Below the pieces are notes generated by a model that saw only the letters and a program-made list of their open reading frames with translations, searched no databases and was not told where the DNA came from. The translations under genes were made by a program, and so were the position numbers. This document shows positions 20,711 to 45,608 of a stretch of 64,000 nt of DNA, in pieces. Position 1 is the first letter of the stretch; each line of letters begins with the position of its first letter. The DNA is taken from the NCBI GenBank assembly GCA_050692555.1, contig JBOGVS010000012.1:5993-69992 (forward strand), written 5' to 3'. This DNA is from Actinomycetota bacterium. GTDB taxonomy: Bacteria; Actinomycetota; UBA4738; CALAEC01.

Positions 20711-22990
20711 TCAGGCTGCCTTTCCCAGGGCGGTTGGATGCCGCGCCCTCGACGGAGGGCGTCGGCGGAGAACACGGTCGCGCACGGCCCACACGAACAC
20801 CTGCCACAGGGCCTCGGCGACGATGGCTCGGGAGATCTTGGAGTGGCCGTGTCGCCGCTCCTCGAAGGTGATGGGGACCTCTCCCACGGCCATCCCGCGT
20901 CGCCACGCCCGGTACGCCAGCTCCACCTGGAACGCGTAGCCCTCGGAGCGAAGCGGGTGGGTGACCAGCTCCCGAAGCGTCTCCCACCGGTACACCCGGA
21001 AGCCGCTGGTCGCATCGGCCACCGGGATGCCCAGGAGGAACCGCACGTACCAGTTTCCCCCTCTGGACAGGAGGCGCCGGAACGCTCCCCAGTTGGTGAT
21101 CCTCCCGCCGGGCACGTACCGGCTCCCGATCGTGAGGTGGTGGTCGGCGGCCCCCTGGAGGAGCGCGGGAAGCTCTTCCGGGCTGTGGGACAGATCCGCG
21201 TCCATCTCCACGACCAGGTCGTAGCCCTCCGAGATGGCCAGCACGAACCCGTCGAGGTAGGCGCTGGCCAGTCCCCCCTTCTCGGGCCGGTCCACGAGCG
21301 TCACGCGAGGCTCTCGTTCGGCGAGCTTGCGGACGATTTCCCCGGTTCCGTCGGGCGAGGAGTCGTCCACCACCTTGACGTCGACCCGCTCGGCGGTCAG
21401 GATCCGGCCGATGACCTCCTCGACCGTGTCCCGCTCGTTGTACGTCGGGAGGATCACCGCGATCCGGGGATCCTCATCGAGCGGAGGGACCGGACGCCGC
21501 TGGGAGCGCCGCGGCACCAGGTAGAACACCGCCAGCAGCAGGAAGATCGCCAGCGGCACCCACCCGCCGATGACGTTGTAGATCGTGCGCCCGGTGGCCC
21601 GCGGAACGTCGCCCCTCCTCAGGGCTCGTTCGAACAGCGGCGTACGTTGAACGGCCTCGCCCTCAGGGGAGACGAACGCGCTGATCCCCGAGAGTGCCGC
21701 GTGGACCACCCACCGCCCGTTCTCCACCGCCCGAAGCTCCGAGAGCACCAGGTGCTGCTCGGGGGCGGCACTCAGCCCGAAGGTCGAGTTGTTCGTGGAG
21801 ACCACCAGGAACCCCACGTCGCCGGTCACCGATTCCCGGACCAGCTCGTCGAAGGCGTTCTCGAAGCAGATGACCGCGGCGAACCGGCCTGAGGGGATGT
21901 CGAAGCGCCCGGGCTCGGTACCCGGCGACAGATCCGCACGCACCCGCCGGATGTCGGGGATCCAGTCGAGCAGGTCGCGCCCGGGGACGTACTCCCCGAA
22001 AGGCAGGAGGTGGTTCTTGGCATACCTGTCCGTCACCTGAGCCTCGGGTGCGTACAGGAGCTCCTCGTTCAGGAGCCGACCGTCCTCCGTTTGAGTGATC
22101 GCTCCGACCAGCGTCCATGCCCCCACGGCTCGGATCGAGTCCTCGACGACGGGACCGATCTCCGGATCCCTGGTGGGGTCGCGGTCGAGAGCGTTCTCCG
22201 GCCACACGGCCAGGTCGGGGGGATCCCCGCCCAGCTGGAGGTGCAGCTGGGCGTGGCTCTCTGCCACCTGCCGGTCCACGATGATCCGGCTGCGGGTGGC
22301 CACCGTCAGAGGGACGTTGCCCTGGACGATGGCCACGTCCACCGGGGGACCCGAGGGCTCGGAGATGGGAATGGCTACGGGCACGAAGGCCAGGCCAGCG
22401 GCCAGGACCGTGGGAACCAGGGCCCGCCGCCACTCCCCTACTCGGAGCAGCGCCAAGAGCACGAGCGCGTTGATCGCCGCCACCAGGAATCCCAGCCCCA
22501 GGGCCCCCACCACCGAGGCCACCGGAAGCAGCAGGGGGTTGTCGTGCTGCGTCGCTCCCAGGCTGACCCACGACCACCCACCGAACGGCCACACGCCCCG
22601 GAGCCATTCCACGAACGCCCACGCCGCCCCGATGGCCAGTGCGGTACGGATCGGCCATTCGTCTCGCCACAGCACCGGGATCAGCGCTCCGAAGATGGCC
22701 AGGAAGGCGGCCACGCCGATCGACAGGGCCGCCCACCCGAGCACCGACACGGGGATCAGCCACGACAGAAGCGGCCCATAGAACGCCAGGCCGAAGACCA
22801 GCCCCAGCAGGGCCCCCCGCCGCCTTTTGGTTGCGGGTCGCAGCGCCCACAGCAGCGGGATCAGGGCCACGAAGCCGAGCGGGCCCAGGTCGGCGGGCGG
22901 CAGAGCAAGCCACAGGGCCACGCCCGACACCGCGGCGGCAAGACTGGCGGCTGGAAGGCGGGGGCCTGTGGCTAGGCGCAGTCCCGGCAA
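20711..22990 (-). CDS. ppm1: Bifunctional apolipoprotein N-acyltransferase (Lnt, CN-hydrolase) / polyprenol-phosphate mannosyltransferase (Ppm1, GT2) fusion
   Basis: N-terminal multi-TM plus CN-hydrolase domain (Lnt). C-terminal GT2 domain with ILPTYNE and VVDDSSPDGT (DXD). Same domain order as the mycobacterial Ppm1 fusion. Confidence 0.8.
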   Translation of the reverse strand: MPGLRLATGPRLPAASLAAAVSGVALWLALPPADLGPLGFVALIPLLWALRPATKRRRGALLGLVFGLAFYGPLLSWLIPVSVLGWAALSIGVAAFLAIFGALIPVLWRDEWPIRTALAIGAAWAFVEWLRGVWPFGGWSWVSLGATQHDNPLLLPVASVVGALGLGFLVAAINALVLLALLRVGEWRRALVPTVLAAGLAFVPVAIPISEPSGPPVDVAIVQGNVPLTVATRSRIIVDRQVAESHAQLHLQLGGDPPDLAVWPENALDRDPTRDPEIGPVVEDSIRAVGAWTLVGAITQTEDGRLLNEELLYAPEAQVTDRYAKNHLLPFGEYVPGRDLLDWIPDIRRVRADLSPGTEPGRFDIPSGRFAAVICFENAFDELVRESVTGDVGFLVVSTNNSTFGLSAAPEQHLVLSELRAVENGRWVVHAALSGISAFVSPEGEAVQRTPLFERALRRGDVPRATGRTIYNVIGGWVPLAIFLLLAVFYLVPRRSQRRPVPPLDEDPRIAVILPTYNERDTVEEVIGRILTAERVDVKVVDDSSPDGTGEIVRKLAEREPRVTLVDRPEKGGLASAYLDGFVLAISEGYDLVVEMDADLSHSPEELPALLQGAADHHLTIGSRYVPGGRITNWGAFRRLLSRGGNWYVRFLLGIPVADATSGFRVYRWETLRELVTHPLRSEGYAFQVELAYRAWRRGMAVGEVPITFEERRHGHSKISRAIVAEALWQVFVWAVRDRVLRRRPPSRARHPTALGKAA

Positions 22991-23256
22991 AGCATCCGCT
23001 TCTTGTCCTTCAGCTGGCTTCTGTGCTTGACCAGGTGGCAGTTCCGGCAGGTGAACTCGTGGGCCTGCTGAGGGACGACCTTGACCGAGAGCGTCTCGAC
23101 GCGTTCCTCGCGGCCGGAAGACGGGACGCTGTCGTCATCCTCGCCGGGGGCCTCGTCGCCTCCTCGCTTGGCCATCATCTCGTCGAGGCTGGTCTCGGCC
23201 GGTTCGGCGGCCGGTTCTTCCTTGGGATTCTCTTCTGGCTCTTCCACGGCGACCAT
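22972..23256 (-). CDS. DUF4193-family small protein (acidic N-terminus, C-terminal CxxC...CxxC)
   Basis: EFTCRNCHLVKHRSQLKDKKRMLCRDCA C-terminus, typical of actinobacterial DUF4193. Start at M182 of the long ORF. Confidence 0.65.
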   Translation of the reverse strand: MVAVEEPEENPKEEPAAEPAETSLDEMMAKRGGDEAPGEDDDSVPSSGREERVETLSVKVVPQQAHEFTCRNCHLVKHRSQLKDKKRMLCRDCA

Positions 23257-23360
23257 GTTGTTCCCCGGGACGGCACATTGTACGCCCCGGTTCGGTGGGG
23301 CGCTCCGGTTCCGTGAAACGGATCGCCGGCCCGCGACATTCCCGGATATCGGATAGCGGA

Positions 23361-23428
23361 GGGCCCACAGAGACCTTTGGGGCCGCGGCGCCGGGGCGCC
23401 GCGTTCTCTACTCAGCCTCTGTGGGCCC
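23361..23428. repeat. 12-bp perfect inverted repeat GGGCCCACAGAG / CTCTGTGGGCCC with a 44-nt GC-rich spacer, in the DUF4193/nurA divergent intergenic region
   Basis: Read directly in the sequence. The spacer itself contains GGCGCC repeats. Confidence 0.6.
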
Positions 23429-23575
23429 TTCGCACCGCCGCGTCTGGCGGAGCGAGGCAATGCTAGTGCGGGCTCTCGGGGGGTGTCAAACGTTCCGGGG
23501 GACTTTGTCACACCGCTTCGCTGTTCGTGTCGGTGGGCGGAGGTATCCTTCCGGCGATGAAGCGGCGGGGGAAGG

Positions 23576-24637
23576 TTGGCCGTCCCGGCTGAGGCGTTCG
23601 CCGGGGCCGATCTCGCCGACAGCCGGGGACTGGACGACGCGGCGGCGTTCGTCGTCGGTCTGTTGGAGCGCCCGGCTTCGGACATCAGGGTCGCCGAGGG
23701 CCAGCTGGGATTCGACGACGACCTGGTGGTCGGAGGGCACCCCGATGCGTTCGGGCTGGAGGTCCTCTCCCCTACCGATCCGGGCACCGTGTGGGCCATC
23801 GACGGAGGCAGCTGTTTGCTGGCCGACGGACGGTCGTTCCAGGTGGCCGGCTACCGGTCCGCTCGGGTCCGGTTCAGGGGCGGGGTCACCGACCTGGTGG
23901 AGTCCCCTCCGCTCACGGTCCGGGCTCTGTCGACCGAGGAGATGGAGCGCATCTACCGGGAACAGCTGGAGCGCATGGAGGTCGAGGTTCCCGACCGCGT
24001 CCCGGACGTCCCTCGGCCGGTGGACTTCCTCCGGGAATGTGGGGAGTGGCTGCTGGTCCGGGACACGGTCCTGGGTGCCCGGCGCGGGGACCTCGTGCTG
24101 GTCGATGGCTCCCTTCACGGAGGACCATGGATCTCGTCCGATTTCGTCCGAAGGACTCACCAGGCGGCAATCGACCGCGGCGTGTCGCTGGCCGGAGTGG
24201 TGAAGGCCTCGACGTTGTTCTGGGGCCGGAACGCGCCGCTGGTCTCGCTGCTCAAGCGGCGCGGGGATCGGGAGATCGGACCGCGACCGTGGGCCTCCAG
24301 GATCTCCACCGACCCCGCGTTCGCCCGGCTGTACGTCGGGGAGATCTTCGTGGCCCATCTGGCCCCCACCGCGCATCACGCGTTCCGGGTGGACGTGGCC
24401 CGGGGCGGCGCGGGAGCAGAGGAAGTACTGGCCCGGCTGGCCGGGTGCGCGAACGACGCGGCGTTCGTGGGATATCCCTACCCGCTGGCCCGGGCCCACC
24501 GTGCCGCCCGGGTGTCCGGGTACGCGGTGGCGGACCTCCGACGGACGTTCCGCGACGCGCTGTCGCGACGCGGGATGGCCGAGGACGATATCGAGACGTT
24601 GTTCCAGGACTTCCACGAGATCCTCAACCGGAGCTGA
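23576..24637 (+). CDS. nurA: NurA-like 5'-3' nuclease
   Basis: VWAIDGGS and LVLVDGSLHG motifs, matching the NurA catalytic DGS motifs in an RNase-H-like fold. ~350 aa. Immediately upstream of a HerA ATPase. Confidence 0.7.
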   Translation: MAVPAEAFAGADLADSRGLDDAAAFVVGLLERPASDIRVAEGQLGFDDDLVVGGHPDAFGLEVLSPTDPGTVWAIDGGSCLLADGRSFQVAGYRSARVRFRGGVTDLVESPPLTVRALSTEEMERIYREQLERMEVEVPDRVPDVPRPVDFLRECGEWLLVRDTVLGARRGDLVLVDGSLHGGPWISSDFVRRTHQAAIDRGVSLAGVVKASTLFWGRNAPLVSLLKRRGDREIGPRPWASRISTDPAFARLYVGEIFVAHLAPTAHHAFRVDVARGGAGAEEVLARLAGCANDAAFVGYPYPLARAHRAARVSGYAVADLRRTFRDALSRRGMAEDDIETLFQDFHEILNRS

Positions 24638-24638
24638 C

Positions 24639-26213
24639 GTGAGCGACCTGTACAAGGGAAGGCTGTTCGGGCGGTCGGTGCTGGAGGCAACGTTCCGCTC
24701 GTTCCACGGGACCGACCTGTTTCTCGGCGAGCTGCTGGCCGCCGACGACCCCGAACGCGCTCGCCGGTTCCTGTTCCGGGTGATCGAGGTGGCCTACGGC
24801 TCGGATTCCACCGATCCCCACTGGGCCGAACGCACCGCGGGCGCGTACATGGCCGGCGACCTGGCCGAGACCCCATACACCCTGCACGATCCCGAGCAGC
24901 GCCTGTACAAGGTGGCCACCTGCTCGCCGCTCGGATACCTGGACGCGGCCCAGGAGTTCCGGAAGCCCAAGTCGCTCCCCGCCCAGTTCGCCCGGGTCAC
25001 CTCCCCCACCCCGGAAGACTTCGAGTTCCTCCGTGGCCGGATGGGCGACCTCCGGGTGGGGCTGCTGCGCTCCGGCGAGGACACCATCGACCTGGAGGTC
25101 GGGGTTCGGGGGGACACCCTGACCTCCCACGTGGGGGTCTTCGCCACAACCGGCATGGGGAAGTCGAACCTCATGAAGGTCCTGGCCGGGACCATCCTGG
25201 AGTCCCAGGGCCGCTATGCCTTCCTCCTGTTCGACCCCCATGGGGAGTACCTCGACGGCGGCGGGGGGATCCGGCGGGGCCTTCGGGACCACCCCTGGTC
25301 CCCCGATCGTCTTCAGGTGTATGCCACCCGCCCGGGGTTGGGAGCCTCGGCCACGGCGCTTCGGCTCACGCTGGGAGAGATCACCCTCGGCGACCTCCAG
25401 ACCGCGTACGACTGGAGCCCGGCCCAGATCGACGCCATCCACCGCCTGGACCGGCTGTACCGGGAGGAATGGATGCCCACCGTGGCGGACGATGCCGAGG
25501 ATCCCGAGGAGCTGGCCAAGCAGACCGGCGCTGCCGCGTCGACGATCCAGGTCATCCGGCGTCGGGCGCAAAGGATCCTGGAGCTCCCGTGCATCAGCCG
25601 GGACGTGTCCCAGGCCTCGCTGTCGCAGCGGATCGTGGACGAGCTGGCCGAGGGTCGCTCGGTGCTGGTGGAGACCAGCGGGCTGTCGGACATGGAGGAG
25701 ATCCTGGTGGCCTCGGTGATCACCCGGCGGCTCCTGGACACCTACGGCTCGGCGTTCCTCGAGGATCGCGAGGCGTTTGCCGCGCTGCCCCCCACCCTGG
25801 TGGCCCTGGAAGAGGCCCAACGGGTGCTGTCGCGGGCCAAGCGCTCGGACGAGAACGTCTTCCCCCGGGTGGCCCGGGAGGGCCGGAAGTTCCGGGTGGG
25901 ACTGTGCGCCGTGAGCCAGCAGCCCAAGCTGATCGACGACGAGCTCCTGTCGCAGTTCAACACGTTCTTCATCCTGGGCCTGGCCGACGAGCGGGACCGG
26001 AACATCCTGCGGGCGTCCTCGAAGCAGGACATCAAGGACCTGGGGCCGGAGATCCAGACGTTGATGCCCGGTGAGTCCATCGTCACGAACCTCGAGGCTC
26101 CGTTCGCCCTGCCCGCCCGGGTGTACCTGTTCGAGGAGTACGTGAAGTCGGTGAAGGGTCCCGCTCCCCTCCCCGACCGGCCGGCTGGGGCTTCGAAGGG
26201 GTTCGCCGAGTAG
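24639..26213 (+). CDS. herA: HerA-family FtsK-like hexameric ATPase/helicase
   Basis: Walker A GVFATTGMGKSNLMKV. HerA-type Walker B LVALEEAQRV. Arginine-finger region. GTG start 2 nt after the nurA stop. Confidence 0.8.
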   Translation: MSDLYKGRLFGRSVLEATFRSFHGTDLFLGELLAADDPERARRFLFRVIEVAYGSDSTDPHWAERTAGAYMAGDLAETPYTLHDPEQRLYKVATCSPLGYLDAAQEFRKPKSLPAQFARVTSPTPEDFEFLRGRMGDLRVGLLRSGEDTIDLEVGVRGDTLTSHVGVFATTGMGKSNLMKVLAGTILESQGRYAFLLFDPHGEYLDGGGGIRRGLRDHPWSPDRLQVYATRPGLGASATALRLTLGEITLGDLQTAYDWSPAQIDAIHRLDRLYREEWMPTVADDAEDPEELAKQTGAAASTIQVIRRRAQRILELPCISRDVSQASLSQRIVDELAEGRSVLVETSGLSDMEEILVASVITRRLLDTYGSAFLEDREAFAALPPTLVALEEAQRVLSRAKRSDENVFPRVAREGRKFRVGLCAVSQQPKLIDDELLSQFNTFFILGLADERDRNILRASSKQDIKDLGPEIQTLMPGESIVTNLEAPFALPARVYLFEEYVKSVKGPAPLPDRPAGASKGFAE

Positions 26214-27350
26214 GTGGCCCGGCTCGTTGCGTTCGGCGACGCCCATCTGGGGCGCACCCACCTGGCTCACCTCCGCGACGAGGAGGGCCGGAACCTCCGG
26301 GAAGAGGACTTCCTGGCGTCCTTCGACTGGGCCGTGGCAAAGACGATCGAGCTGGAGCCCGATGGATTCCTGTGGCTCGGCGACATCTTCGACCACGCCC
26401 GCCCCTCGTACCGGGTGTTCACTCGCGTCCTGGTGGCACTCCGCCGGCTGGAGGAGGCGGGCCACCGCGGCGTAGCGATCAGCGGGAATCACGACACCCC
26501 TCGCCTCCGGGGAACGGGCTCGCCGTATGCGGCGCTGGAAGAGATCTTCGGCAACGTCACGTTCGCCTGGGCGATGGAGGCCCGGTCTGCGGAGATCGCA
26601 AGGGTACGGATCCATGCGGTGCCCCAGACCTTGACGGACGAGGAGTTCCGCGCGGAGGTGGAGCGGAGCGCGGCAGAGCTGCGGAAGGACGCCACCAGTG
26701 TCCTGCTGGCCCACGTGGCTCTGACCTCGCTCCCCTCTCGGGAATGGCGGGACATCAACGAGATCGAGGTCGAGGAGGCCGTGTTCGATCGCCGGTTCGA
26801 CCACGTGATCCTGGGCCACTATCACGTCCACCAGAAGGCGTCGAAGCGGACCTGGTACGCGGGGTCCACGGACTCGTTCTCGTTCGCCGACCGTCCGAAG
26901 GGCGCCGGGCCCAAGGGGATCGTCGTCCTCGACACCGAAAGCGGAAAGGTCGAGCACCACGCCAACCCGGGTGAGCGGCCTCTGGAGACCTATGGGATCG
27001 ATGCGGCCGGCCTGGGCCCCTCGGAGCTGGTGGAAGCGGTCGGCCGGGAGGCCGATGGCTGTCCCGATGGAGCCATCGCCAGGGTGTTCCTCAATGAGGT
27101 GGACCCCGCCAGCTACCGGCAAGTAACGCCCGACGACTGGCAGGAGGCGGTACCCGCGGCCGTCCACGTCCAGCCGGAACCCGGCTACTCCCTCGAGGCC
27201 CTGCCCGTCCAGGCCGGATCGGAGATCGGGCGGCTGGAGGTCGAGTGGGACGCCTACGTCGAGGGCCAGGACCTCACCGGCCTGGACCGTGACCGGGTTC
27301 GGGAGACCGGCCGTCGGTTCCTGGTGGAGGCCCAGGGCGAGTCGGCATGA
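26214..27350 (+). CDS. sbcD: Mre11/SbcD-family DNA repair exonuclease (calcineurin-like phosphoesterase)
   Basis: Phosphoesterase motifs I to IV (FGDAHLG, GDIFDH, GNHD, GHYH). Contiguous with the herA stop. Confidence 0.85.
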   Translation: MARLVAFGDAHLGRTHLAHLRDEEGRNLREEDFLASFDWAVAKTIELEPDGFLWLGDIFDHARPSYRVFTRVLVALRRLEEAGHRGVAISGNHDTPRLRGTGSPYAALEEIFGNVTFAWAMEARSAEIARVRIHAVPQTLTDEEFRAEVERSAAELRKDATSVLLAHVALTSLPSREWRDINEIEVEEAVFDRRFDHVILGHYHVHQKASKRTWYAGSTDSFSFADRPKGAGPKGIVVLDTESGKVEHHANPGERPLETYGIDAAGLGPSELVEAVGREADGCPDGAIARVFLNEVDPASYRQVTPDDWQEAVPAAVHVQPEPGYSLEALPVQAGSEIGRLEVEWDAYVEGQDLTGLDRDRVRETGRRFLVEAQGESA

Positions 27351-29623
27351 GGGTTCGCGAGCTCTCTCTTCGCAACTACCGGGTGTTCGAGGAGCTCGAC
27401 CTGGAGCTCCCGGCGCGGGTCATCGGCGTCTTCGGACCGAATGGCTCGGGCAAGACCACGATCTGCGAGGCCATCCAATATGGGTGCTACGGGAAGGCTC
27501 GCACCGACAAGTCGCAGATCCGGACCCACGGCGTGCTCACCGACTGTCAGGTCCGGGTGGTCTTCGAGCACGGCGGCCAGCAGTACGAGGTCCGCCGGTC
27601 GATCCGCGGCCGCAACCACCAGACCGACGCCGAGCTCTACGTGGGCGACGTGCAGCTGGCCTCGGGGGTCACGGAGGTCGACGCGGCCATCCAGGGCCTC
27701 CTTCGCATGGACGTCCAGGTGTTCCGCGCGTCGGTGTTCGCCGAGCAGAAGCAGCTGGACGCGTTCAGCGATGTGACCAAGGGCAAACGTAAGGACATGG
27801 TGCTGCGCCTGCTGGGGATCCGGCCCGTGGACGAGGCCCGGACGGTCTCCCGGAAGGAGGCCCGGGAGTGCAAGAAGGATGCCGACCGCCTGGCCGGCAC
27901 CCTTCCCGATCTCGCCGAGCAGGAGAAGGCCCTCCAGGAGGCGCGGACGGCCGCGAAGCAGGTCCAGAATGCCGCGGAGAAGGCCGCGGAGAACCTGCGC
28001 AACGCCCAGGAGCGGGACGGCGCTGCAGAGAAGGCCTTCGGTGAGGCGGATCGGATCCGCCAGGAGGCCGAGCGGCTGGCCACGGCCCGCCAGGTCGTGG
28101 CGGAGGAGGTCGAACGCCTCCTGGCCCACCACGCCGAAGTCGGCGATCGGATCGAGCGGCTTCGAGCCGATCTGGCCGCCCTGCCCGACCTGGAGCGCGA
28201 GCGCGAGCGCCTGTCGGACGCGGCCGAACGCCTGGTGCTGGGCAGGCGGCTGGCGGAGGTCGACGTGGACCTCCGGCAGTTGCGGGCCCGCCTGGCGAAG
28301 CTCCCGGAGCTCGACACCGAGACGGCGCTGGCGGAGCTCGAGACCGCCCAGAGAGAAGCCCGGGCCGCGGACCGGACCCACACCAAGGCCGAGTCGGCCC
28401 ATGAGCGAACCACCCGTGACCTCGCGGAAGCCGAAGACGCCCTGGCCAAGGCGGCCGAGGCCGACCCCTCACAAGCCTGCCCCACGTGTGGCCGTCCACT
28501 GGGGGATGACTTCCGGGAGTACCTGAAGCACTGCAGGGATCGGGTCCGTCTGGCCAAGGCCGAAGCCCGCACCGCCGCCACTGCGCTCAAGGCGGCCACC
28601 ACCGCCGCCACGGCCGCGGGACGACGACTGAACCAGGCCACCACGGCCGGCGAGGCGGCCCGTGAAGCGGCGGGAGCTCGGGCGGATCTCGGCACGCGGA
28701 TCGAGGAGTCGGAAGCGAAGCTGGCCGAGCTGGCCGAGCCGTTCCGGGGACAGGTTCCCGACCTCCAGGAGCTGGAGACCGACGCCCATCGAGCCCAGGA
28801 GATCGGCGCCCGGGTCGCGGAGCTCACCGGCGAACGGAAGCACCTCTCGGCCCTGGAGAAGGACCTGGGGAAGGCCGGCTCCGACCTCGAGGTCCGCCGG
28901 TCCAAGCTCGAAGCGCTGGACAAGGAGGCCGCCGCGCTGGCCTTCGATCCCGAGGACCACGCCAGGCTGCGGAAGGAACGCGACGAGGCCGAGCGCCTCC
29001 TGCATCAGGCCCAGGGAAAGGAACGCGAAGCCGCGGCCGCCACGGCCGAGGCGCGGCAGTTCGTGACCCGCCTCGAGGGTGCGTTGGAGCAGGCTCACCA
29101 GACCCGGGGAAAGGTCGAGGAGCTGCGCGACGAGGCCCGGTACCTCGATCGGGTCTCCGGCCTCCTCGAGGGGTTCCGCACCTACCTGTACGGCCGGATC
29201 GTCCCCGAGCTATCCAGAGAAGCGGAGGCCCTGTTCCGGGACCTAACCAGCAGCGAGTACGACGATCTCCGGATCGACGCAGACACGCTGGAGATCGAGA
29301 TCGCAGACGGGGATCGATACTTCCCCATCGAGCGGTTCAGCGGCTCGGAGAGCGACCTGGCGAACCTGGCCCTCCGGGTGGCCATCTCCACCCACCTGTC
29401 ACGGATGTGGGGGGCCGACGTGGGGATGCTGGTGCTGGACGAGGTCCTGGCCTCGCTCGACGTGGAGCGAAAGGATCTGTTCGTCCGGACCATGGCGAGG
29501 CTGGCCGGACGGTTCCACCAGGTGTTCGTGATCACCCATGCCGAGCAGGTGAAGGACCAGTTCCCGGCGACCCTCGAGGTTCGCAGGGTCGGCCGCCGCC
29601 GTAGTGAGGTCGTGCTGACGTAA
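27347..29623 (+). CDS. sbcC: Rad50/SbcC-family SMC-like ATPase with zinc hook
   Basis: Walker A GPNGSGKTT, long coiled coil, zinc-hook CPTCGRPL, signature SGSESD, Walker B/D-loop MLVLDEVLASLD. ATGA overlap with sbcD. Confidence 0.9.
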   Translation: MRVRELSLRNYRVFEELDLELPARVIGVFGPNGSGKTTICEAIQYGCYGKARTDKSQIRTHGVLTDCQVRVVFEHGGQQYEVRRSIRGRNHQTDAELYVGDVQLASGVTEVDAAIQGLLRMDVQVFRASVFAEQKQLDAFSDVTKGKRKDMVLRLLGIRPVDEARTVSRKEARECKKDADRLAGTLPDLAEQEKALQEARTAAKQVQNAAEKAAENLRNAQERDGAAEKAFGEADRIRQEAERLATARQVVAEEVERLLAHHAEVGDRIERLRADLAALPDLERERERLSDAAERLVLGRRLAEVDVDLRQLRARLAKLPELDTETALAELETAQREARAADRTHTKAESAHERTTRDLAEAEDALAKAAEADPSQACPTCGRPLGDDFREYLKHCRDRVRLAKAEARTAATALKAATTAATAAGRRLNQATTAGEAAREAAGARADLGTRIEESEAKLAELAEPFRGQVPDLQELETDAHRAQEIGARVAELTGERKHLSALEKDLGKAGSDLEVRRSKLEALDKEAAALAFDPEDHARLRKERDEAERLLHQAQGKEREAAAATAEARQFVTRLEGALEQAHQTRGKVEELRDEARYLDRVSGLLEGFRTYLYGRIVPELSREAEALFRDLTSSEYDDLRIDADTLEIEIADGDRYFPIERFSGSESDLANLALRVAISTHLSRMWGADVGMLVLDEVLASLDVERKDLFVRTMARLAGRFHQVFVITHAEQVKDQFPATLEVRRVGRRRSEVVLT

Positions 29624-29633
29624 GGAGGACCCC

Positions 29634-30056
29634 ATGTCCGCGAGGGAGGAAAAGCCGCTGCTTCCGTTCACCAGGCTGGTGCTGGTGATCTCCGCGGTGG
29701 TGCAGGCGGCCTTCGGAGTGGCCTGTGTGTTCTCGCCCTCGTTCATGAACTCGGTGGCGCTGCCCGATCCACTGCCGCCGTCCTCCGACCTGGTCTATCA
29801 GTACTTCGGGGCCCTGTTCCTGGCGAACGCGTGGGGCGCGGTGTACGCGCAGCGACAGAAACGATGGGTGGCGGCTCGCACGTACCTGGCCATCTCCGGC
29901 CCGTTCGTCGCCCTCACCGTGGCCCTCACCGTGGCCGCCGCCGTCGGAGAGCCCGGAGTCCCCACAACCGTGTGGCTGTACGTGGGCCTGGCCGCCCTGT
30001 ACCTGCCCAGCGTGGCGTACGTGTGGGGCATGGAGTCCGCGCGACGACCTGTCTGA
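29634..30056 (+). CDS. Hypothetical membrane protein (4 TM)
   Basis: RBS aaggagg. Hydrophobic helices. No recognisable motif. Confidence 0.45.
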   Translation: MSAREEKPLLPFTRLVLVISAVVQAAFGVACVFSPSFMNSVALPDPLPPSSDLVYQYFGALFLANAWGAVYAQRQKRWVAARTYLAISGPFVALTVALTVAAAVGEPGVPTTVWLYVGLAALYLPSVAYVWGMESARRPV

Positions 30057-30079
30057 TCCGCCGTCAGTGGCTGCCACGC

Positions 30080-30472
30080 CTATCCGCGCTGACGGTCCTT
30101 CTTGACCACGAACGTGCCGGTGGCCCGGGTGGTAACCACCGGCTCGCCCAGCAGCTCGGCTGCGCTGTCGTTGACGTCGTAGCGGGGCTGGATGTACTTG
30201 CGGCACTCGAACTGGCACTTCCGGCTGGTGTTGCCCACGCTCACCACCTGCCCCGTGACCTCAAGGAAATCCCCCGCGTACACGGGGGCCAGGAACTCGA
30301 CCGATTCATATCCCGCCAGCAGGCCCTCGTCCCCGTCGTGGCGGATGGCCAGCTCGGTGGCTACGTCGCCGAACAGCTCCATGATCTTGGCACCGGCCAC
30401 CAGGTTCCCGCCGTAGTGCGCGTCGGTCTGGGCCATCCGCATCCGCAGCGTGCAGGTCGGCAGATCAGCCAT
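30080..30472 (-). CDS. kal: Hotdog-fold protein, 3-aminobutyryl-CoA ammonia-lyase (Kal)-like
   Basis: ~130-aa hotdog-size protein immediately downstream of kamD-kamE with an overlapping start. Assignment is contextual plus size/fold. Confidence 0.5.
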
Positions 30473-31214
30473 CTGGCTTCTTTCGGCCCAGGGCCCAGGC
30501 GAGGTACGAGGCCACCTCGCTCGGGGTGGTCCCCTTGGCGAACACCCGGTCGTAGCCCAGCTCGGCCGCCATGTCCGGAGAGAGACGCGGGCCGCCGGCG
30601 ATCATCAGGAACCGTCCCCGCAGCCCTCGCCGGTCAACCTCCTCGGCGAACTCCCGGAGGTGCCGGATGTGAGCGTCCTTCTGGGTGACCACCTGGCTGA
30701 TCAGGACGGCGTGGGCTCCTTCTTCCACCGCCCGCTCCGCCAGGTCACCGGCATCCACCTGGGATCGGAGGTTGATCACCCGAAAGCACCGGTACGACTC
30801 CAGCCCCTTGTCCCCCGCCCATCCCTTCACCGACAGGATGGCGTCCAGGCCCACGGTGTGCGCGTCGGTGCCCACCACCGCGCCGGCGATCACGGCCTCC
30901 TTCCGCCCGCCCAGCGCCTCCCGAACCTTCCGGGTCACCTCTTTCTGGTCGAGCAACGGATAGGGCCGCTCCTCCACGGTCACCGCGGACATGTCCACCG
31001 AGTGATCCACGCTCCCGTACACCACGAAGAACGTGAACCGGGGACCCATGGCCTTCCGGTGCACCACCAGAGGCCGGTGGATCCCCATCTTCTCGGCTAG
31101 CTGACGGGCGGCGCCCTCCGCCTTCTCATCCGAGGGGATCGGAAGGGTGAACGAGACCTGGACCTTGCCGTCGTCGGTGTCGTCCCCGTACGGCCGGATT
31201 CCCGCCTCGGTCAT
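30465..31214 (-). CDS. kamE: Lysine/beta-lysine 5,6-aminomutase beta subunit (B12-binding, KamE-like)
   Basis: Cobalamin-binding DxHxxG motif (TDAHTVG) in a Rossmann-like domain. ~250 aa. Overlaps kamD. Confidence 0.75.
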
Positions 31215-32803
31215 GGCTGCACCTTCCGTCCGTGCTCCCAGAGCTCGAGGAACGGGTTGAGGTATCCCTCCTCGATCTCCACCACGCCGTCCAGACCGTG
31301 CCCGCCGTCCGGTGCCCGGCTGGTGTCCGCGAATTCACCGGCCCGGATGGCCTCGAACATCCCCCGGTCGGCCACGCGCCGGAGCATCTCGACGGTGTCC
31401 TGAAGCACGCGCATGGCCCGTTCCCGGATCCGCCCGTCCCGCGGTGGCCACCACTCGTCGGCCACGTGCTTCGCCGTGCGGACCATGTACCGGGCGCTCT
31501 CGATGGCCAGGTCCCGGTCGGAGAGCCACGGGGTATGGATGCCCTCGGTCATCATCCCGATCAGCAGGATCTCCTGCCCGGTGAGCACCCCGGTCAGGTG
31601 GAACATCCCGTCGAGCAGGTACCCGAGGAAAACGTTGCCGGTCATGTGCTTGGTCGGCGGCATGTACTTCAGCGGCGCCTCGGGGAACAGCTCGCGCACC
31701 AGCTGGGCATGGGCCAGCTCCATCAGCCACTGGTCGGGAAGGTCCGGGTCGATCTCGAACGCGTGCCCCAGCCCCAGTTGCCACGGCTCCAGGCCGGCAT
31801 CGAGGCCGAACCGCTCGTTGATCAGCTGGGAAGCCACCACGGTGTGGGCCGCTTCGACCGCGTCGGCAGTGGTCAGGTAGTTGTCCTCGCCGGTATTGAT
31901 GATGATCCCGGCCCGGGCGTGGATCATCCGGCTGAAGCGCTGGTCGATGAACGTACGCTTCATGTTGATGTCCCGAAAGATGATCCCGTACATGCAGTCG
32001 TTGAGCATCATGTCGAGCCGTTCCAGCGCGGCCAGGGCGCCGATCTCGGGCATGCACAGCCCGCTGGCGTAGTTGGTCAGGCGCACGTACCGGCCGACCT
32101 CGCCCGAGACCTCGTCCAGGGCGTCCCGCATCAGCCGGAAGTTCTCCCGGGTCGCATAGGTGCCTGCATACCCCTCGGTGGTGGGCCCTTCGGGAACGAA
32201 ATCCAGGAGGGACTGGCCCGTGGAGCGGATCACCGCCACGATGTCGGTCCCCGCCCGGGCAGCGGCCTGGGCCTGAGGGATGTCCTCGTGGATGTTCCCG
32301 GTGGCCACGATGAGGTAGATCCACGGCTTCTCCGGGTCACCCAGACGCCTGAGGAGGTCGTCGCGGTCCCGGCGACGCTCCAGGATCCTGGCGTCGGCTC
32401 GACGGGCGGAGGCCAGGGCGGCCTCCCGAGCAGGGGCGGGATCGTCCGGCCATCGGAACGTGAGATCGCCGGTCTCCACCCCGGGTCCGAGCTCGTCGAT
32501 CCCGATCCCCTGTCGCACCAGGGCGTCGAACACGGGGATGGCCACTCCCCGCCCGAGTCCCATGTCCTCCCGGACCCGGTCCACGACGAGATTGGGGTAC
32601 GGACGGGCGTCCACCCCCTCCCCCACCGCGCCGTCCAGGCCACACAGGCGCAGCACCGACCGCTCGATGGCCACGGTGGTGTGAGCAGCGATCATGTCCT
32701 CGACCGGCCGACATACCGCGGCCGCGAGGTCGCGGGCCTCCTGCACGAGCGCGTCGTCGAGCCCGAGCTTCTTCACCGGGGCCGAGTGTATCCGGGCCGG
32801 CAC
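31211..32803 (-). CDS. kamD: Lysine/beta-lysine 5,6-aminomutase alpha subunit (KamD-like TIM-barrel)
   Basis: N-terminus AAHTTVAIERSVLRLCGLDG closely resembles KamD. ~530 aa. Confidence 0.75.
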   Translation of the reverse strand: MPARIHSAPVKKLGLDDALVQEARDLAAAVCRPVEDMIAAHTTVAIERSVLRLCGLDGAVGEGVDARPYPNLVVDRVREDMGLGRGVAIPVFDALVRQGIGIDELGPGVETGDLTFRWPDDPAPAREAALASARRADARILERRRDRDDLLRRLGDPEKPWIYLIVATGNIHEDIPQAQAAARAGTDIVAVIRSTGQSLLDFVPEGPTTEGYAGTYATRENFRLMRDALDEVSGEVGRYVRLTNYASGLCMPEIGALAALERLDMMLNDCMYGIIFRDINMKRTFIDQRFSRMIHARAGIIINTGEDNYLTTADAVEAAHTVVASQLINERFGLDAGLEPWQLGLGHAFEIDPDLPDQWLMELAHAQLVRELFPEAPLKYMPPTKHMTGNVFLGYLLDGMFHLTGVLTGQEILLIGMMTEGIHTPWLSDRDLAIESARYMVRTAKHVADEWWPPRDGRIRERAMRVLQDTVEMLRRVADRGMFEAIRAGEFADTSRAPDGGHGLDGVVEIEEGYLNPFLELWEHGRKVQP

Positions 32804-32810
32804 TCCCGGC

Positions 32811-33098
32811 TCAGGAGGAAGGTTGTGCGGGAGGCTCGGAGGCCGGGGCCGGCTCCGGCTCGGCCGTGGGCACCGGCCGGGTGATCGGGGGCGGCCCCGG
32901 CTTGGGCCGGGCCTTGCGGCGCGAGAACGGGGCCCACCACGCCAGCAGGAGCCCCAGAACCACGCCGATGGCCGGGAACCCGAAGACCGCCATGTTGTCG
33001 AGGGGGCGGATCCCGAACTGCTGGAGGTCGACGGCCACGAACAGTCCGAAGAGCAGACCGGAGACCGCGCCGAGCACCGGCCGCCCTCGGAACTTCAC
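32811..33098 (-). CDS. Small membrane protein with Pro-rich C-terminal tail
   Basis: Two TM helices followed by a PKPGPPPITRPVPTAEPEPAP tail. 8 nt upstream of kamD. Confidence 0.4.
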   Translation of the reverse strand: MKFRGRPVLGAVSGLLFGLFVAVDLQQFGIRPLDNMAVFGFPAIGVVLGLLLAWWAPFSRRKARPKPGPPPITRPVPTAEPEPAPASEPPAQPSS

Positions 33099-33727
33099 GC
33101 CATCCCCTTCTTCCCGGCGGCGGCCACGCCCATCCCGATCGCCGTCACCAGTGTCAGACCGGCCGCCGTGGCGCCGGGCACCGTGGTCAGGGGGTTGCCC
33201 TCGATCAGCACCATCGCGGACCCATCGCACCGGCCGCCCTTCCCGACGTGCTCCCCCTCGATCTCGTACAGGCCCACCAGGTCGAAGGGAAGCAGCCGGC
33301 CGTACGCCGCGTCGAGCGGATAGTCGCCCTCGGCCCGCTTTGCCCCTCCCCGATTCGGGTGGCTCCACTCGGCCACCTTCACTGAGTTCGGTCCCACCAC
33401 CACGGCGATGAACCCGCTGTGGTCCTTGATCACCTTCCGACTGGTCCCCACGTAGTGGATGTCGAGGTTCCCCTCGTTCGGAAGGACCACGGGGTTCGCG
33501 GCGGTGTCGTTGGCCGGCGTGTACGTCTGGTTTCCGATGGTGGCCTTCGCGTTGCATCCCCCGGTAACCCCCGCGGAGACCGGGGAACCGATCAGGAGCA
33601 CGGTGGGGATGGCGAGCGCGGCGAGGTGGAGGACGCGGCGCACGTGGTGCCGGGCTCGTGCGTGGCGGCTGCGGAGCGAACCAACCACTCGAGGAGGAGC
33701 GTAGTTCCCGGGCCTCCGAGCGGTCAA
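33095..33727 (-). CDS. Secreted / membrane-anchored hypothetical protein (exact start uncertain)
   Basis: Signal-peptide-like LHLAALAIPTVLLIGSPVSAG and a C-terminal hydrophobic anchor. 4-nt overlap with the downstream small gene. Confidence 0.4.
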   Translation of the reverse strand: MTARRPGNYAPPRVVGSLRSRHARARHHVRRVLHLAALAIPTVLLIGSPVSAGVTGGCNAKATIGNQTYTPANDTAANPVVLPNEGNLDIHYVGTSRKVIKDHSGFIAVVVGPNSVKVAEWSHPNRGGAKRAEGDYPLDAAYGRLLPFDLVGLYEIEGEHVGKGGRCDGSAMVLIEGNPLTTVPGATAAGLTLVTAIGMGVAAAGKKGMA

Positions 33728-43653: not shown

Positions 43654-44531
43654 TGCTTCGGTTCGTGATCCCCAAGGGCTCGCTGGAGGAACAGACCCTG
43701 CTGCTCCTGGAGTCCGCCGACCTCCGGGTTCGGCGGGGGTCCGACCGCGACTATCACGGTCGCATCGACGACGATCGCATCGACCGCGTCTCGCTGCTCC
43801 GTCCCCAGGAGATCCCCCGGTACGTGGAGGACGGGTTCTTCGACCTGGGGATCACCGGCCGGGACTGGGTGGAGGAGACCGGAGCGGACGTGGAGACCCT
43901 GGCCGAGCTCACGTATGCAAAGGGCGGTCCCGGCCACCCCGTGCGGCTGGTGCTGGCGGTGCCGGTGGACTCGGGCCCCGGTCGGGCCGCCGAAATGCCT
44001 CCCGGCAGCCGGATCTCCACCGAGTATCCCGAGATCACCAGGAGGTACTTCGGGGACCTGGGGATCCCGGTGAAGGTGTTCGAGTCCTACGGTGCCACCG
44101 AGGCCAAGGTCCCCGACATCGTGGACGCCATCGTGGACGTGTCGGAGACCGGAGGGACGCTCCGGGCGCACGGGATGAAGATCATCGAGACGCTCATGGA
44201 GTCGGAGGTCCTGCTGATCGCCAACCGCGCCGCGGCGGCGGATCCGGGGAAGCGGCCGGACATGGACGATGTCCGAACGCTGCTCCTGGGCGCCATGGCC
44301 GCCCGGGGCCGGGCCCTCATCAAGCTCAACGTGTCCGAGGAGCGGCTGAAGGAGATCCTCGAGGTCCTCCCGGCCATGAAGGCCCCCACGGTGTCGCCGC
44401 TGGCCGAGGAGGGCGCCTATGCCGTGGAGACCGTGGTGGAGAAGCGCAACGTGAACACCCTGATCCCCCTCCTCAAGGCCTACGGGGCCACCGACATCCT
44501 CGAGATCCCCATCAGCAAGATCGTTCCCTAG
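43653..44531 (+). CDS. hisG: ATP phosphoribosyltransferase (long form)
   Basis: [12 protein letters not shown]-terminus. ~290 aa including a C-terminal regulatory domain. Confidence 0.85.
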   Translation: MLRFVIPKGSLEEQTLLLLESADLRVRRGSDRDYHGRIDDDRIDRVSLLRPQEIPRYVEDGFFDLGITGRDWVEETGADVETLAELTYAKGGPGHPVRLVLAVPVDSGPGRAAEMPPGSRISTEYPEITRRYFGDLGIPVKVFESYGATEAKVPDIVDAIVDVSETGGTLRAHGMKIIETLMESEVLLIANRAAAADPGKRPDMDDVRTLLLGAMAARGRALIKLNVSEERLKEILEVLPAMKAPTVSPLAEEGAYAVETVVEKRNVNTLIPLLKAYGATDILEIPISKIVP

Positions 44532-44812
44532 TCGGGAGGAACGAAGAACCGGCCGGGTCGGGGGCGGATCCTGGTCACGGTGAGCGAGCCGGCATCCCCA
44601 CCGAAGTGCAGCTCTACCGGGAACGAGGGTGCCGAGGGCAGCCGGTTGTAGGCCGACCCCTGCCCCAAGACGAGCACCAGCCGGGCGCCGGCCGGAACCA
44701 CGGCGTCGAGCGGCTGGAATGAGAAGTCCACGGTCATCCGCTCCCCCGGGGTGACCGGACCGGCGTGGTCCTCGGTGCGGGTGGGAAAGCGCAGGTCGAT
44801 CGAGCGGTTCAT
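44528..44812 (-). CDS. Small hypothetical protein, translationally coupled (1-nt overlap) to the upstream reverse-transcriptase ORF
   Basis: 94-aa ORF directly downstream of the RT in the -1 frame. Either an RT C-terminal region split by a frameshift or a partner protein. Confidence 0.35.
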   Translation of the reverse strand: MNRSIDLRFPTRTEDHAGPVTPGERMTVDFSFQPLDAVVPAGARLVLVLGQGSAYNRLPSAPSFPVELHFGGDAGSLTVTRIRPRPGRFFVPPD

Positions 44813-45426
44813 CAGGCCGAGGACCCATCATCTCCCGGCCACCGCAGCGCGGTGGGCCCCTCCACGACCGAGGTCTTCCGCTCCGACCGGCGGAGCCCCA
44901 CCCGACCGAGGGCCTCGTCGATCCGATCGAGGACGACGAGCATCCCACCGGCTGACGGCAGGCCGATCAGATAGTCGTCCACCCATCGAAGGATGGGAGT
45001 AGGTGAGAGGGCTTCGTCGACGGGCCGGAGGACGGCATTGGCCATCACGGCGGAGGCCGGCGGGCCGATGGGGAGGCCTTCGTAGCCCTCGCTCCCCCAC
45101 TCCTCCAGCATGTCTGCCGACAGTCGGGCGTCCACCGGGTCCGCACCGGAGGACCGAAGGCACTCAGCCAGGACCGGCGGGGTCACCGATCCGTAGAACG
45201 AGGCCACGTCCGTCCGGAGCAGGAGCGAGGAGCGTCCGGCCACCCCGGCCGCCACCCGATTGGCCAGCCGGATGGACGCCGGGACCGGGGCCAAGCTCCA
45301 CGCCGTCGCCGACTCGGTCGACCGGTTCGCCAGGACACCCGGCTGCAGGCGCTGCTCGATGACCGGGGCCACCCGGCCGCCGAGCCGGTGCCACGCCGCC
45401 TCATCCCGCGGCGAGAGAACGGCCAT
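44812..45426 (-). CDS. Compact reverse transcriptase-like protein (RT motifs 1-7)
   Basis: AGVAGRS (motif 1), LLLRTDVASFYGSV (motif 2), GLPIGPPASAVMANAVL (motif 4/B), LRWVDDYLIG (motif 5/C, xDD catalytic box), GLRRSERKTSVV (motif 6/7). Confidence 0.6.
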   Translation of the reverse strand: MAVLSPRDEAAWHRLGGRVAPVIEQRLQPGVLANRSTESATAWSLAPVPASIRLANRVAAGVAGRSSLLLRTDVASFYGSVTPPVLAECLRSSGADPVDARLSADMLEEWGSEGYEGLPIGPPASAVMANAVLRPVDEALSPTPILRWVDDYLIGLPSAGGMLVVLDRIDEALGRVGLRRSERKTSVVEGPTALRWPGDDGSSA

Positions 45427-45608
45427 CCTCCGGAACCCTCCGGATGGTTTGGCCTCCCACCGTGAAACGATTGGATCGACGAGCGCCAGCGGTCCTCCCC
45501 CGGCCAGAGGGAGGTGCGGCCCAACCGTTTGTATCCCGGCGCCGACGCCACCGCCTATCCCCCGTTCGGGGGTTCCGTGCTCCTCCGGTCAGGGGATGTT
45601 CGGCTGAG

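Follow-up and report, generated by a model that had tools for sequence, protein, structure and literature searches.

Thermophilic archaea such as Sulfolobus and Pyrococcus carry a herA-mre11-rad50-nurA operon in which, as Constantinesco and colleagues reportedly described in 2004, herA stands first and nurA last. In Escherichia coli, the SbcCD genes are arranged with that of the Mre11-type nuclease directly before that of the Rad50-type ATPase, which bears a CxxC hook, and we know of no HerA-NurA partner in this species. To our knowledge, studies of HerA-NurA in bacteria have been confined to the Deinococcus-Thermus group, where it lies apart from SbcCD; the nurA-herA (hepA) pairs of Deinococcus radiodurans and Thermus thermophilus are among the closest known systems to the locus described here. 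Modest or atypical phenotypes are reported for D. radiodurans and Thermus HerA-NurA mutants (PMC8708640, PMC5448004), and a central resection role is therefore not guaranteed in bacteria. In Oceanithermus profundus, sbcD and sbcC homologues are reported to lie downstream of hepA; the authors saw an archaeal-like repair architecture and proposed that the nurA-hepA pair secondarily recruited sbcCD (PMC5448004). Our literature search returned nothing specific on an actinobacterial four-gene operon.

We analyzed a 64-kb stretch of DNA (hereafter, the window), whose source record is labeled Actinomycetota and whose GC content is ~69%. It contains a nurA-herA-mre11-rad50 cassette, and the main new point, as judged from sequence comparison, is a conserved DNA-damage-type promoter motif ahead of this operon.

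Gene Organization of the Cassette

The four genes and the reading frame that follows them are arranged as follows:

23576-24637, + strand: nurA, TTG start, 353 aa; RNase H-like 5'-3' nuclease NurA
24639-26213, + strand: herA, GTG start, 524 aa; HerA/FtsK-class hexameric DNA translocase ATPase
26214-27350, + strand: mre11/sbcD, 378 aa; Mre11-type metallophosphoesterase nuclease
27347-29623, + strand: rad50/sbcC, 758 aa; a short SMC-like ATPase of Rad50 type whose CPTC zinc hook sits midway along the coiled coil
29634-30056, + strand: orf5, 140 aa; start 10 nt past the rad50 stop, preceded by an AGGAGG site

All four cassette genes are contiguous on one strand, and the tight packing described in an initial annotation of the window was borne out, together with its gene coordinates: as read from the sequence, the nurA-herA junction is TGA, 1 nt and GTG (+1 nt), TAG is followed directly by GTG between herA and mre11 (0 nt), and mre11 and rad50 share an ATGA overlap (-4 nt). 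The same four products appear in independent gene calls for the source contig (NCBI GCA_975419715.1, CDIQYQ010000048.1), and the first protein has already been named NurA by NCBI. Scanning for intrinsic terminators and sigma-70 promoters revealed nothing above chance level inside the operon. Co-transcription of orf5 with the operon may occur. This frame has no Pfam match and was rejected as a fifth member of the conserved cassette because a homologue was absent from all 80 related loci (0/80); the relatives L001 and L003 pass from rad50 directly to an amine oxidase gene.

Protein Families

The initial annotation had assigned the four products from their motifs, and both the assignments and the named motifs held up in Pfam searches and in the translations. 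NurA matched PF09376 with 38.1 bits (cut-off 21; E 1.6e-9), was without a match in NCBIfam or PADLOC, and was found to have the NurA fold, an RNase H-like core akin to those of EndoV and PIWI; its best solved relative is Sulfolobus NurA, with 18% identity. The translation contains DGS starting at D177 and a DGGS at residues 76-79 that is invariant in relatives, and the candidate catalytic residues D76 (of DGGS), E122 and D177 (of DGS) do not vary among 28 relatives, nor does H308. HerA matched the central ATPase domain DUF87 with 73.8 bits, and its GMGKS at 172 (Walker A) and LEEA at 390 (Walker B) show no variation across 22 diverse homologues. The best PDB match was Sulfolobus HerA 4d2i (85.8 bits), and defense HerAs scored 42-55 bits. 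Among NCBIfam models, those of repair HerA gave 93.4 and 82.9 bits, below their archaeal equivalog cut-offs of 800 and 970 bits, respectively, followed by CedD with 64 bits and anti-phage HerA with 49 and 43 bits. By these scores, HerA belongs to a subfamily of its own, is no equivalog of the characterized archaeal enzymes, and is nearer to repair HerA than to the defense or conjugation paralogues.

Mre11 matched Metallophos with 40 bits and contains the complete phosphoesterase motifs I-V (GDAH 8, GDIFD 56, GNHD 91, AHV 166 and GHYH 201); its best PDB matches are Methanocaldococcus Mre11 (3auz, 3av0), and it stays under the curated cut-offs of TIGR00619 (56.6 vs 77.65) and Mre11_Halo (54 vs 550). 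Rad50 matched AAA_23 (71.5 bits) and SMC_N (56.8 bits) and carries the motifs of a split ABC-type head, namely Walker A GPNGSGKT 30, Q-loop AEQ 132, signature SGSE 665, Walker B LVLDE 695 and H-loop TH 730, with the CPTC zinc hook at residues 378-381 within a region of coiled-coil-like composition from about 150 to 620. It scored 142 on the archaeal model PRK03918 (cut-off 700) and 89.6 on sbcc (cut-off 478.5), and the PDB chains that it matches best are the Rad50 proteins of Methanocaldococcus, Thermotoga and Pyrococcus. The label "archaeal-type" that had been given to the operon is thus a fair one, as the best solved relatives are Sulfolobus HerA and NurA and Methanocaldococcus Mre11 and Rad50, and the best NCBIfam models for the cassette proteins are archaeal. 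All four proteins lie far below the NCBIfam equivalog cut-offs, however, and are therefore distant from the tested archaeal enzymes.

Distribution of the Gene Order

A bacterial four-gene operon with nurA in first place had been called unusual, a view that a survey of gene order in relatives does not sustain. The order nurA-herA-mre11-rad50 was present in 34 of the 35 Actinomycetota loci with enough sequence: at all 13 loci with room in the window's clade, at 3/3 in a second actinobacterial clade, and at 18/19 in Acidimicrobiales. NurA was encoded upstream of HerA at every Actinomycetota locus with room (50/50) and at 67 of 68 related loci with room. Outside this phylum, the four-gene order was also found in Ignavibacteria and Zixibacteria loci, in one Methanobacteriota MAG and on a Pontibacillus replicon, in addition to the published case of Oceanithermus; an FCB-group locus showed nurA-herA-mre11 but no rad50 above the threshold used. 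In the three actinobacterial clades, the order is the rule rather than the exception, and several bacterial phyla commonly carry this cassette as a feature of long standing; the locus is therefore a solid, fairly ordinary find.

Predicted Promoter Upstream of nurA

The RecA-NDp motif and its link to PafBC have been described (PMC5656591, PMC6789036, PMC8223512), with the mycobacterial consensus tTGTCRgtg-8nt-TAnnnT as quoted in PMC5656591, and the motif reportedly extends to other Actinobacteria (PMC8223512). Two features were predicted ahead of nurA:

23528-23549, + strand: predicted promoter TGTCGGTG-N8-TATCCT, exactly matching the RecA-NDp (PafBC) consensus of mycobacteria
23557-23592, + strand: possible leaderless mini-ORF of 11 codons, with its ATG 7 nt past the -10, overlapping the nurA TTG start

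The predicted promoter, which the initial annotation had overlooked, reads TGTCGGTGGGCGGAGGTATCCT, and its -10 hexamer TATCCT occupies 23544-23549, 26 nt before the nurA start. It is the sole match to the RecA-NDp consensus in 64 kb on both strands, with a chance expectation of 0.01. In relatives, the core and the spacing are kept (16/20 close loci and 12-13 Acidimicrobiales loci), but the full 8-mer is not, being matched by the window alone. The core GTCSG-N10-TAnnCT, as found at the nurA promoter position of these close loci, occurs just 17 times in 612 kb, and 16 of these occurrences are at that position; for Acidimicrobiales, the related TGTCRCA-N9-nAnnnT is at the nurA promoter position in 12 of 13 occurrences in 702 kb. 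The core of the relatives is GTC(G/C)G, compared with mycobacterial GTC(A/G)G. At most loci, a start codon 6-8 nt past the -10 fits a leaderless transcript, and in most relatives it is an ATG or GTG that shares the nurA frame; the ATG or GTG after the -10 in the window and L001 is out of this frame, and its own frame ends at TGA.

The four genes are probably read from this one promoter. Because the TGTCGGTG element replaces a -35 box at RecA-NDp spacing, damage induction via a PafBC-like, LexA-independent route is predicted, and we regard the chances of such PafBC-type control of the operon as evenly balanced. No site resembling a LexA box (TCGAAC-N4-GTTCGA, with 3 mismatches at most) was present in 23257-23575, in line with the earlier statement that the upstream region lacks a LexA box. 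WYL-domain matches were absent from the ORFs scanned, a part of those in the 64-kb window, and a literature search returned no paper linking NurA with PafBC.

The initial annotation had also reported a 12-bp inverted repeat in the upstream region. The repeat exists and is longer, with 17-nt arms at 23356-23372 and 23417-23433 that are 94% complementary, and it belongs not to nurA but to a covarying structured RNA of about 106 nt on the opposite strand, which always precedes the divergent DUF4193-lnt operon. The covariance model of this element (R1) matches solely where DUF4193-lnt adjoins, and its G-U pairs fit the opposite strand only; the repeat was accordingly rejected as a nurA operator. 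Rfam searches of the whole window (gathering thresholds) and of 23200-23580 (E<=10) gave only chance miRNA-hairpin matches.

Proposed Function in Double-Strand Break Processing

The family and fold identities, the intact catalytic and ATPase motifs, the operon packing and the conservation of the unit across Actinomycetota make a role of the four genes in repair quite probable, and the cassette as a whole is probably an operon of the chromosome, passed on vertically, that serves to process DNA double-strand breaks. By analogy with characterized archaeal and Deinococcus homologues, an Mre11 dimer and the zinc-hook ATPase Rad50 would recognize, tether and first trim the DNA ends; the duplex would then be pumped by a HerA hexamer into a NurA dimer, and degradation of the 5' strand by NurA would leave a 3' tail for RecA.

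Alternatively, the locus may consist of two independent adjoining modules, with Mre11-Rad50 acting as SbcCD to cleave hairpins or protein-blocked ends at forks and NurA-HerA having another role, for instance RecJ support or DNA translocation, in line with proposals for Deinococcus and Thermus. Published work describes an interaction of D. radiodurans HerA with RecJ (PMC8708640) and treats a Thermus HerA homologue in a broader cell-biology context (PMC5448004). Moreover, most Thermoplasmatota loci and several FCB loci have nurA-herA without detectable adjoining mre11-rad50, and 0.9-2 kb insertions separate herA from mre11 at some Acidimicrobiales loci. However, the four genes stay together at nearly all Actinomycetota loci, with gaps of mostly 0-100 nt; their divergence is congruent, in that percent identity to the window has the same rank order across clades for all four proteins; and the single conserved promoter motif seen lies upstream of nurA. 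We consider separate modules unlikely and favor a joint role in break processing.

Genome Context and Inheritance

In a quick neighbor-joining tree of HerA with midpoint root, all Actinomycetota sequences but UBA9087 (L047) formed one group, and within this group Acidimicrobiales separated from the other two clades; outside Actinomycetota, bacterial and archaeal sequences were intermixed. The genes flanking the cassette are metabolic or housekeeping genes, and the lnt-ppm neighbor is kept at seven loci where HerA shares 59-84% identity with that of the window. HerA is the more conserved, with 83-84% identity versus 60-71% for the neighboring housekeeping Lnt-Ppm. The HerA tree, the conserved lnt-ppm neighbor and the housekeeping flanks point to vertical inheritance in the core chromosome.

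These observations also bear on the proposal of the initial annotation that the genes might serve in defense. On such a reading, a HerA-nuclease pair and an SMC-like sensor, in the manner of TdpAB, Lamassu or MADS, would destroy invading phage or plasmid DNA. Blackwood et al. raised the idea that archaeal HerA-NurA might be protective (PMC3326311), and PADLOC gave partial matches of HerA to defense HerA and mad8 and of Rad50 to LmuB and mad3. These PADLOC matches were at the domain level only, with no full-length system match; those of HerA span the ATPase core alone, NurA has none, and the defense partners LmuA, Sir2, DUF4297 and methylase are not present. The phage search gave no matches to the cassette, and a search of 72,556 plasmids gave only 2 full-length matches, with 30-32% identity, on replicons of about 1 Mb. 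With no phage matches, almost no plasmid matches and no defense-system match, these searches gave the proposal no support, and a defense role is therefore very unlikely. Also against it are the weaker anti-phage HerA scores in NCBIfam (43-49 vs 83-93 bits for repair HerA), a best solved HerA relative that is a repair enzyme, the conserved lnt-ppm linkage with its housekeeping surroundings, a near-universal distribution that tracks taxonomy within Actinomycetota clades and is not patchy, and a promoter that resembles a DNA-damage motif.

Recent horizontal acquisition from archaea on an island, possibly of little use to the host, is highly improbable: outside bacteria, HerA homologues come closest in Thermoplasmatota (44-48% identity, also with nurA-herA order), the full cassette occurs in unchanged order in one Methanobacteriota MAG, and HerA of archaea and of bacteria other than Actinomycetota is mixed in the tree, but the cassette GC (about 0.69-0.70) equals that of its surroundings with host-typical GC3, the Actinomycetota HerA minus UBA9087 forms one deep group mirroring class-level splits, a native actinobacterial promoter motif precedes nurA, the chromosomal neighbor is conserved, and mobile-element genes adjoining the cassette are absent.

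Comparison with Known Systems

On the reading of a vertically inherited break-processing operon, the cassette may, tentatively, be a native, ancient apparatus for end resection in deep-branching Actinomycetota (Acidimicrobiia together with the uncultured clade of the window) and may also be wired into the LexA-independent PafBC damage response of the phylum. If so, an "archaeal" pathway would belong to the regular equipment of bacterial recombination in a major soil phylum, under damage regulation and perhaps replacing or working beside AdnAB/RecBCD, and PafBC-type induction would tie resection machinery of archaeal type to a regulon already known from actinobacteria. The window offers a clean four-gene example of a version that occurs widely among uncultured soil Actinomycetota and is no curiosity in the surveyed lineages; current understanding is not overturned, and known families are extended to new hosts.

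The likeness to the mycobacterial PafBC regulon lies in the exact consensus match at a sensible distance from the nurA start codon, whereas the window's relatives retain the GTCSG or TGTCRCA core alone. TdpAB and other HerA-based defense systems differ in score (TdpA, 44 bits; repair HerA, 86 bits) and in that the window pair is coupled to Mre11-Rad50 without a defense context. As in Escherichia coli SbcCD, the nuclease gene lies directly ahead of the hook-bearing ATPase gene; however, SbcC has about 1040 residues versus 758 for the window Rad50, which scores lower on the sbcc model than on archaeal Rad50 models and has no E. coli SbcC chain among its solved matches at E<=1e-6. With the operon of thermophilic archaea, the window shares the same four families in one tight cluster, but the gene order differs and is the one common to bacterial relatives, the archaeal Rad50 models have about 880 residues and the window Rad50 is about 120 shorter, the match to Sulfolobus HerA is weak and identity to the solved NurA low, and the host is a mesophile-type, high-GC bacterium. 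Oceanithermus profundus, although of another phylum, has by its published description a nurA-hepA-sbcD-sbcC arrangement like that of the window.

Identity of the four genes

The four genes that the initial annotation recognized as a nurA-herA-mre11-rad50 cassette were confirmed, and they are tightly packed, with junctions of +1, 0, and -4 nt in gene order:

23576-24637, plus strand, nurA
24639-26213, plus strand, herA
26214-27350, plus strand, mre11
27347-29623, plus strand, rad50

The identification of the genes was also right: in Pfam searches, the first protein matched the NurA family (38.1 bits vs. a cut-off of 21) and the second HerA/DUF87 (73.8 bits), and the mre11 and rad50 products matched Metallophos (40 bits) and AAA_23 plus SMC_N (71.5 and 56.8 bits), respectively. 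All motifs listed at the outset were found in the four proteins, and NurA residues DGGS 76-79, E122, and DGS 177-179 were invariant in 28 relatives. The window forms part of NCBI assembly GCA_975419715.1 (contig CDIQYQ010000048.1), a MAG labelled 'Actinomycetota bacterium', whose gene calls list the same four products, and a protein identical to the first already carries the NCBI name 'DNA double-strand break repair nuclease NurA'. The nearest solved relatives of the four proteins are archaeal: HerA was best matched by Sulfolobus HerA (85.8 bits), with all defence-type HerA proteins well below, and Methanocaldococcus Mre11 and Rad50 were the top solved matches of the other two proteins. The top-scoring NCBIfam models were archaeal as well; every equivalog cut-off, however, lay far above the scores of all four proteins, which therefore represent subfamilies of their own rather than strict-sense orthologues of tested enzymes.

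Distribution of the gene order

By searching a collection containing one genome per species with a profile of diverse HerA homologues, we obtained at least 577 relatives, and the best 80 loci were fetched and surveyed by tblastn with the four window proteins.

Gene order among the best 80 of at least 577 loci (denominators, loci with enough flanking sequence)
Window's clade: nurA just upstream of herA, 18/18; mre11-rad50 downstream, 13/13
Second actinobacterial clade: nurA just upstream of herA, 5/5; mre11-rad50 downstream, 3/3
Acidimicrobiales: nurA just upstream of herA, 27/27; mre11-rad50 downstream, 18/19

The four-gene order was also found in one Ignavibacteria locus, one Zixibacteria locus, and a Methanobacteriota MAG, and on an 898-kb Pontibacillus replicon, where the genes are annotated, in the order of the window, as NurA, ATP-binding protein, metallophosphoesterase, and SMC ATPase. 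In one FCB-group locus and another locus from the Zixibacteria, nurA-herA-mre11 was seen, with rad50 below detection at the threshold used. The Pontibacillus cassette (locus L082, Pontibacillus sp. ALD_SL1, NZ_CP062975.1, 5006-11615) lies beside gyrB/gyrA, murA, and a thymidine kinase gene in a cultured member of the Bacillota, and this strain is a possible genetically tractable model of the bacterial four-gene cassette.

Local variation was observed around the cassette. In six fetched loci (L003, L043, L045, L050, L051, and L052), the herA-mre11 gap is widened by 0.9-2 kb of added DNA. The window itself carries, at 29634-33727, an extra block (orf5, a 4HBT thioesterase, lysine 5,6-aminomutase subunits, and two small ORFs) absent from the close relatives L001 and L003, in which an amine oxidase gene directly follows rad50.

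Proposed function

End resection is the most likely function, judged from the homologous systems of archaea and Deinococcus. The analysis itself shows the identity of the genes, their intact motifs, tight packing, and co-inheritance, and a conserved and specific promoter motif. Mre11-Rad50 would bind and trim broken ends, and HerA would pass the duplex on to NurA, which would resect the 5' strand to yield a substrate for RecA; the proteins would thus be expected to form a complex with resection activity, encoded by genes that are probably co-transcribed. The main rival explanation is that nurA-herA and mre11-rad50 are two pairs acting independently. It retains a degree of plausibility, since nurA-herA stands alone in many non-actinobacterial relatives and the published phenotypes of bacterial HerA-NurA are not simple. 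Joint action of the four proteins in end resection is nevertheless the reading that we favor.

Inheritance and genomic context

All four proteins showed the same rank order of falling identity to the window across clades in the best 80 loci. A crude neighbour-joining tree of HerA with a midpoint root placed the Actinomycetota, except for UBA9087 (L047), in one group split into the Acidimicrobiales and the other two actinobacterial clades of the survey; the remaining bacteria were intermixed in the other half with Thermoplasmatota archaea, whose HerA is 44-48% identical. The adjoining Lnt-Ppm gene, which is conserved less than HerA, is kept in seven loci with HerA 59-84% identical to that of the window. 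GC content is uniform across the cassette and its surroundings, and the four ORFs carry the coding signature of the host (GC3 0.86-0.88). The rest of the window is metabolic or housekeeping in content (sulfite reductase, lysine aminomutase, his genes, cysS, an FtsH-like protease, and ABC transporters). These data point to a vertically inherited operon of the core genome.

A role in defence, raised initially as an alternative, is unlikely: HerA matched the Sulfolobus protein above every defence-type HerA, the neighbours are housekeeping genes, PADLOC gave zero hits for NurA and domain-level hits only for HerA and Rad50, a phage sequence search gave zero matches, and a plasmid search gave only two full-length matches (30-32% identity), both on replicons of ~1 Mb. 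Recent horizontal transfer from elsewhere is also unlikely, given the uniform GC, host-type GC3, congruent identity ranks, and retained Lnt-Ppm neighbour.

Elsewhere in the window, a 258-aa reverse-transcriptase ORF (44528-45588, minus strand; Pfam RVT_1) is followed by a 99-aa ORF without hits. The best PADLOC hits of the 258-aa ORF, Drt8, UG32, and UG23, span only the N-terminal half of the ~500-aa models, and this ORF is possibly a defence-type reverse transcriptase that has been truncated or split.

Predicted nurA promoter

As the initial annotation held, no LexA-box-like site was detected in the intergenic region. Two features were read close to the nurA start:

23528-23549, plus strand, predicted promoter reading TGTCGGTG-GGCGGAGG-TATCCT
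23557-23592, plus strand, possible 11-codon mini-ORF over the TTG start of nurA

The predicted promoter matches exactly the mycobacterial RecA-NDp consensus tTGTCRgtg - 8 nt - TannnT (PMC5656591), and it is the sole match in the 64 kb (chance expectation, 0.01). Through RecA-NDp, PafBC switches on the LexA-independent damage response of mycobacteria, and the motif is stated to reach other Actinobacteria (PMC6789036, PMC8223512). The core GTCSG-N10-TAnnCT occupies the nurA promoter position in 16 of 20 loci of the window's clade; it turns up 17 times in 612 kb, and these 16 account for all but one. Acidimicrobiales loci have a related motif, TGTCRCA-N9-nAnnnT, of which 702 kb contain 13 copies, 12 lying upstream of nurA. 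We therefore offer, as a testable prediction, a PafBC-type promoter that would render the operon damage-inducible; in the literature library searched, no paper connected NurA with PafBC.

Most loci have an ATG or GTG 6-8 nt past the -10 element, a spacing that would fit leaderless mRNA, as in the known actinobacterial type. The ATG of the window, at 23557 and 7 nt past the predicted -10, opens the mini-ORF and is out of frame with nurA; the equivalent codon is in frame in most relatives, where the nurA mRNA would be leaderless.

Inside the mre11 coding region, TCGATCGCCGGTTCGA (26785-26800, plus strand) differs from the actinobacterial LexA box at a single position and probably arose by chance; LexA-like sites, allowing up to 3 mismatches, were ~2.4-fold commoner across the window than in shuffled sequence.

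Candidate structured RNA at the inverted repeat

The apparent 590-bp intergenic stretch is partly coding, since it includes a DUF4193 gene:

22972-23256, minus strand, DUF4193 gene (94 aa), upstream of lnt-ppm and between lnt-ppm and nurA
23348-23453, minus strand, structured RNA candidate of ~106 nt, with its promoter at 23489-23460 (minus strand)

The inverted repeat noted initially does exist, with arms of 17 nt (23356-23372 and 23417-23433), and forms the outer stem of the RNA candidate, in which a small covarying hairpin precedes a long one whose internal loops are conserved. The element is near-invariant in four relatives with diverged flanks, shows compensatory changes, and is immediately preceded by a conserved minus-strand promoter (TTGACA-17/18-TAnnnT). 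A metagenome scan found its core in at least 120 contigs. In an alignment of 82 copies fitted to a covariance model, 24 of 36 pairs had changes on both sides, and 92% of cells were paired vs. 33-50% with slid partners; the frequent G-U pairs are compatible with the minus strand only. DUF4193 lies downstream on the same strand in 68 of the 68 loci with room, usually followed by lnt-ppm, and only 6 of them carry nurA on the opposite flank of the element. These data assign the predicted element to the minus strand and the DUF4193-lnt genes; a role of the inverted repeat as a nurA operator is not supported. The candidate matched no Rfam family and is probably a new sRNA or cis-regulatory leader of the DUF4193-lnt operon; this by-product may merit a separate study.

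Relation to known systems

The arrangement is real but not unusual, contrary to its initial framing, because the order is clade-wide, being the rule in three actinobacterial groups, and occurs in other phyla; sbcD and sbcC were noted downstream of nurA-hepA in Oceanithermus profundus in 2017 (PMC5448004), and a review reports NurA/HerA homologues in Actinobacteria (PMC8708640). What is of modest interest is the broad, unreported distribution of the cassette in Actinomycetota, together with a PafBC-type promoter that can be tested.
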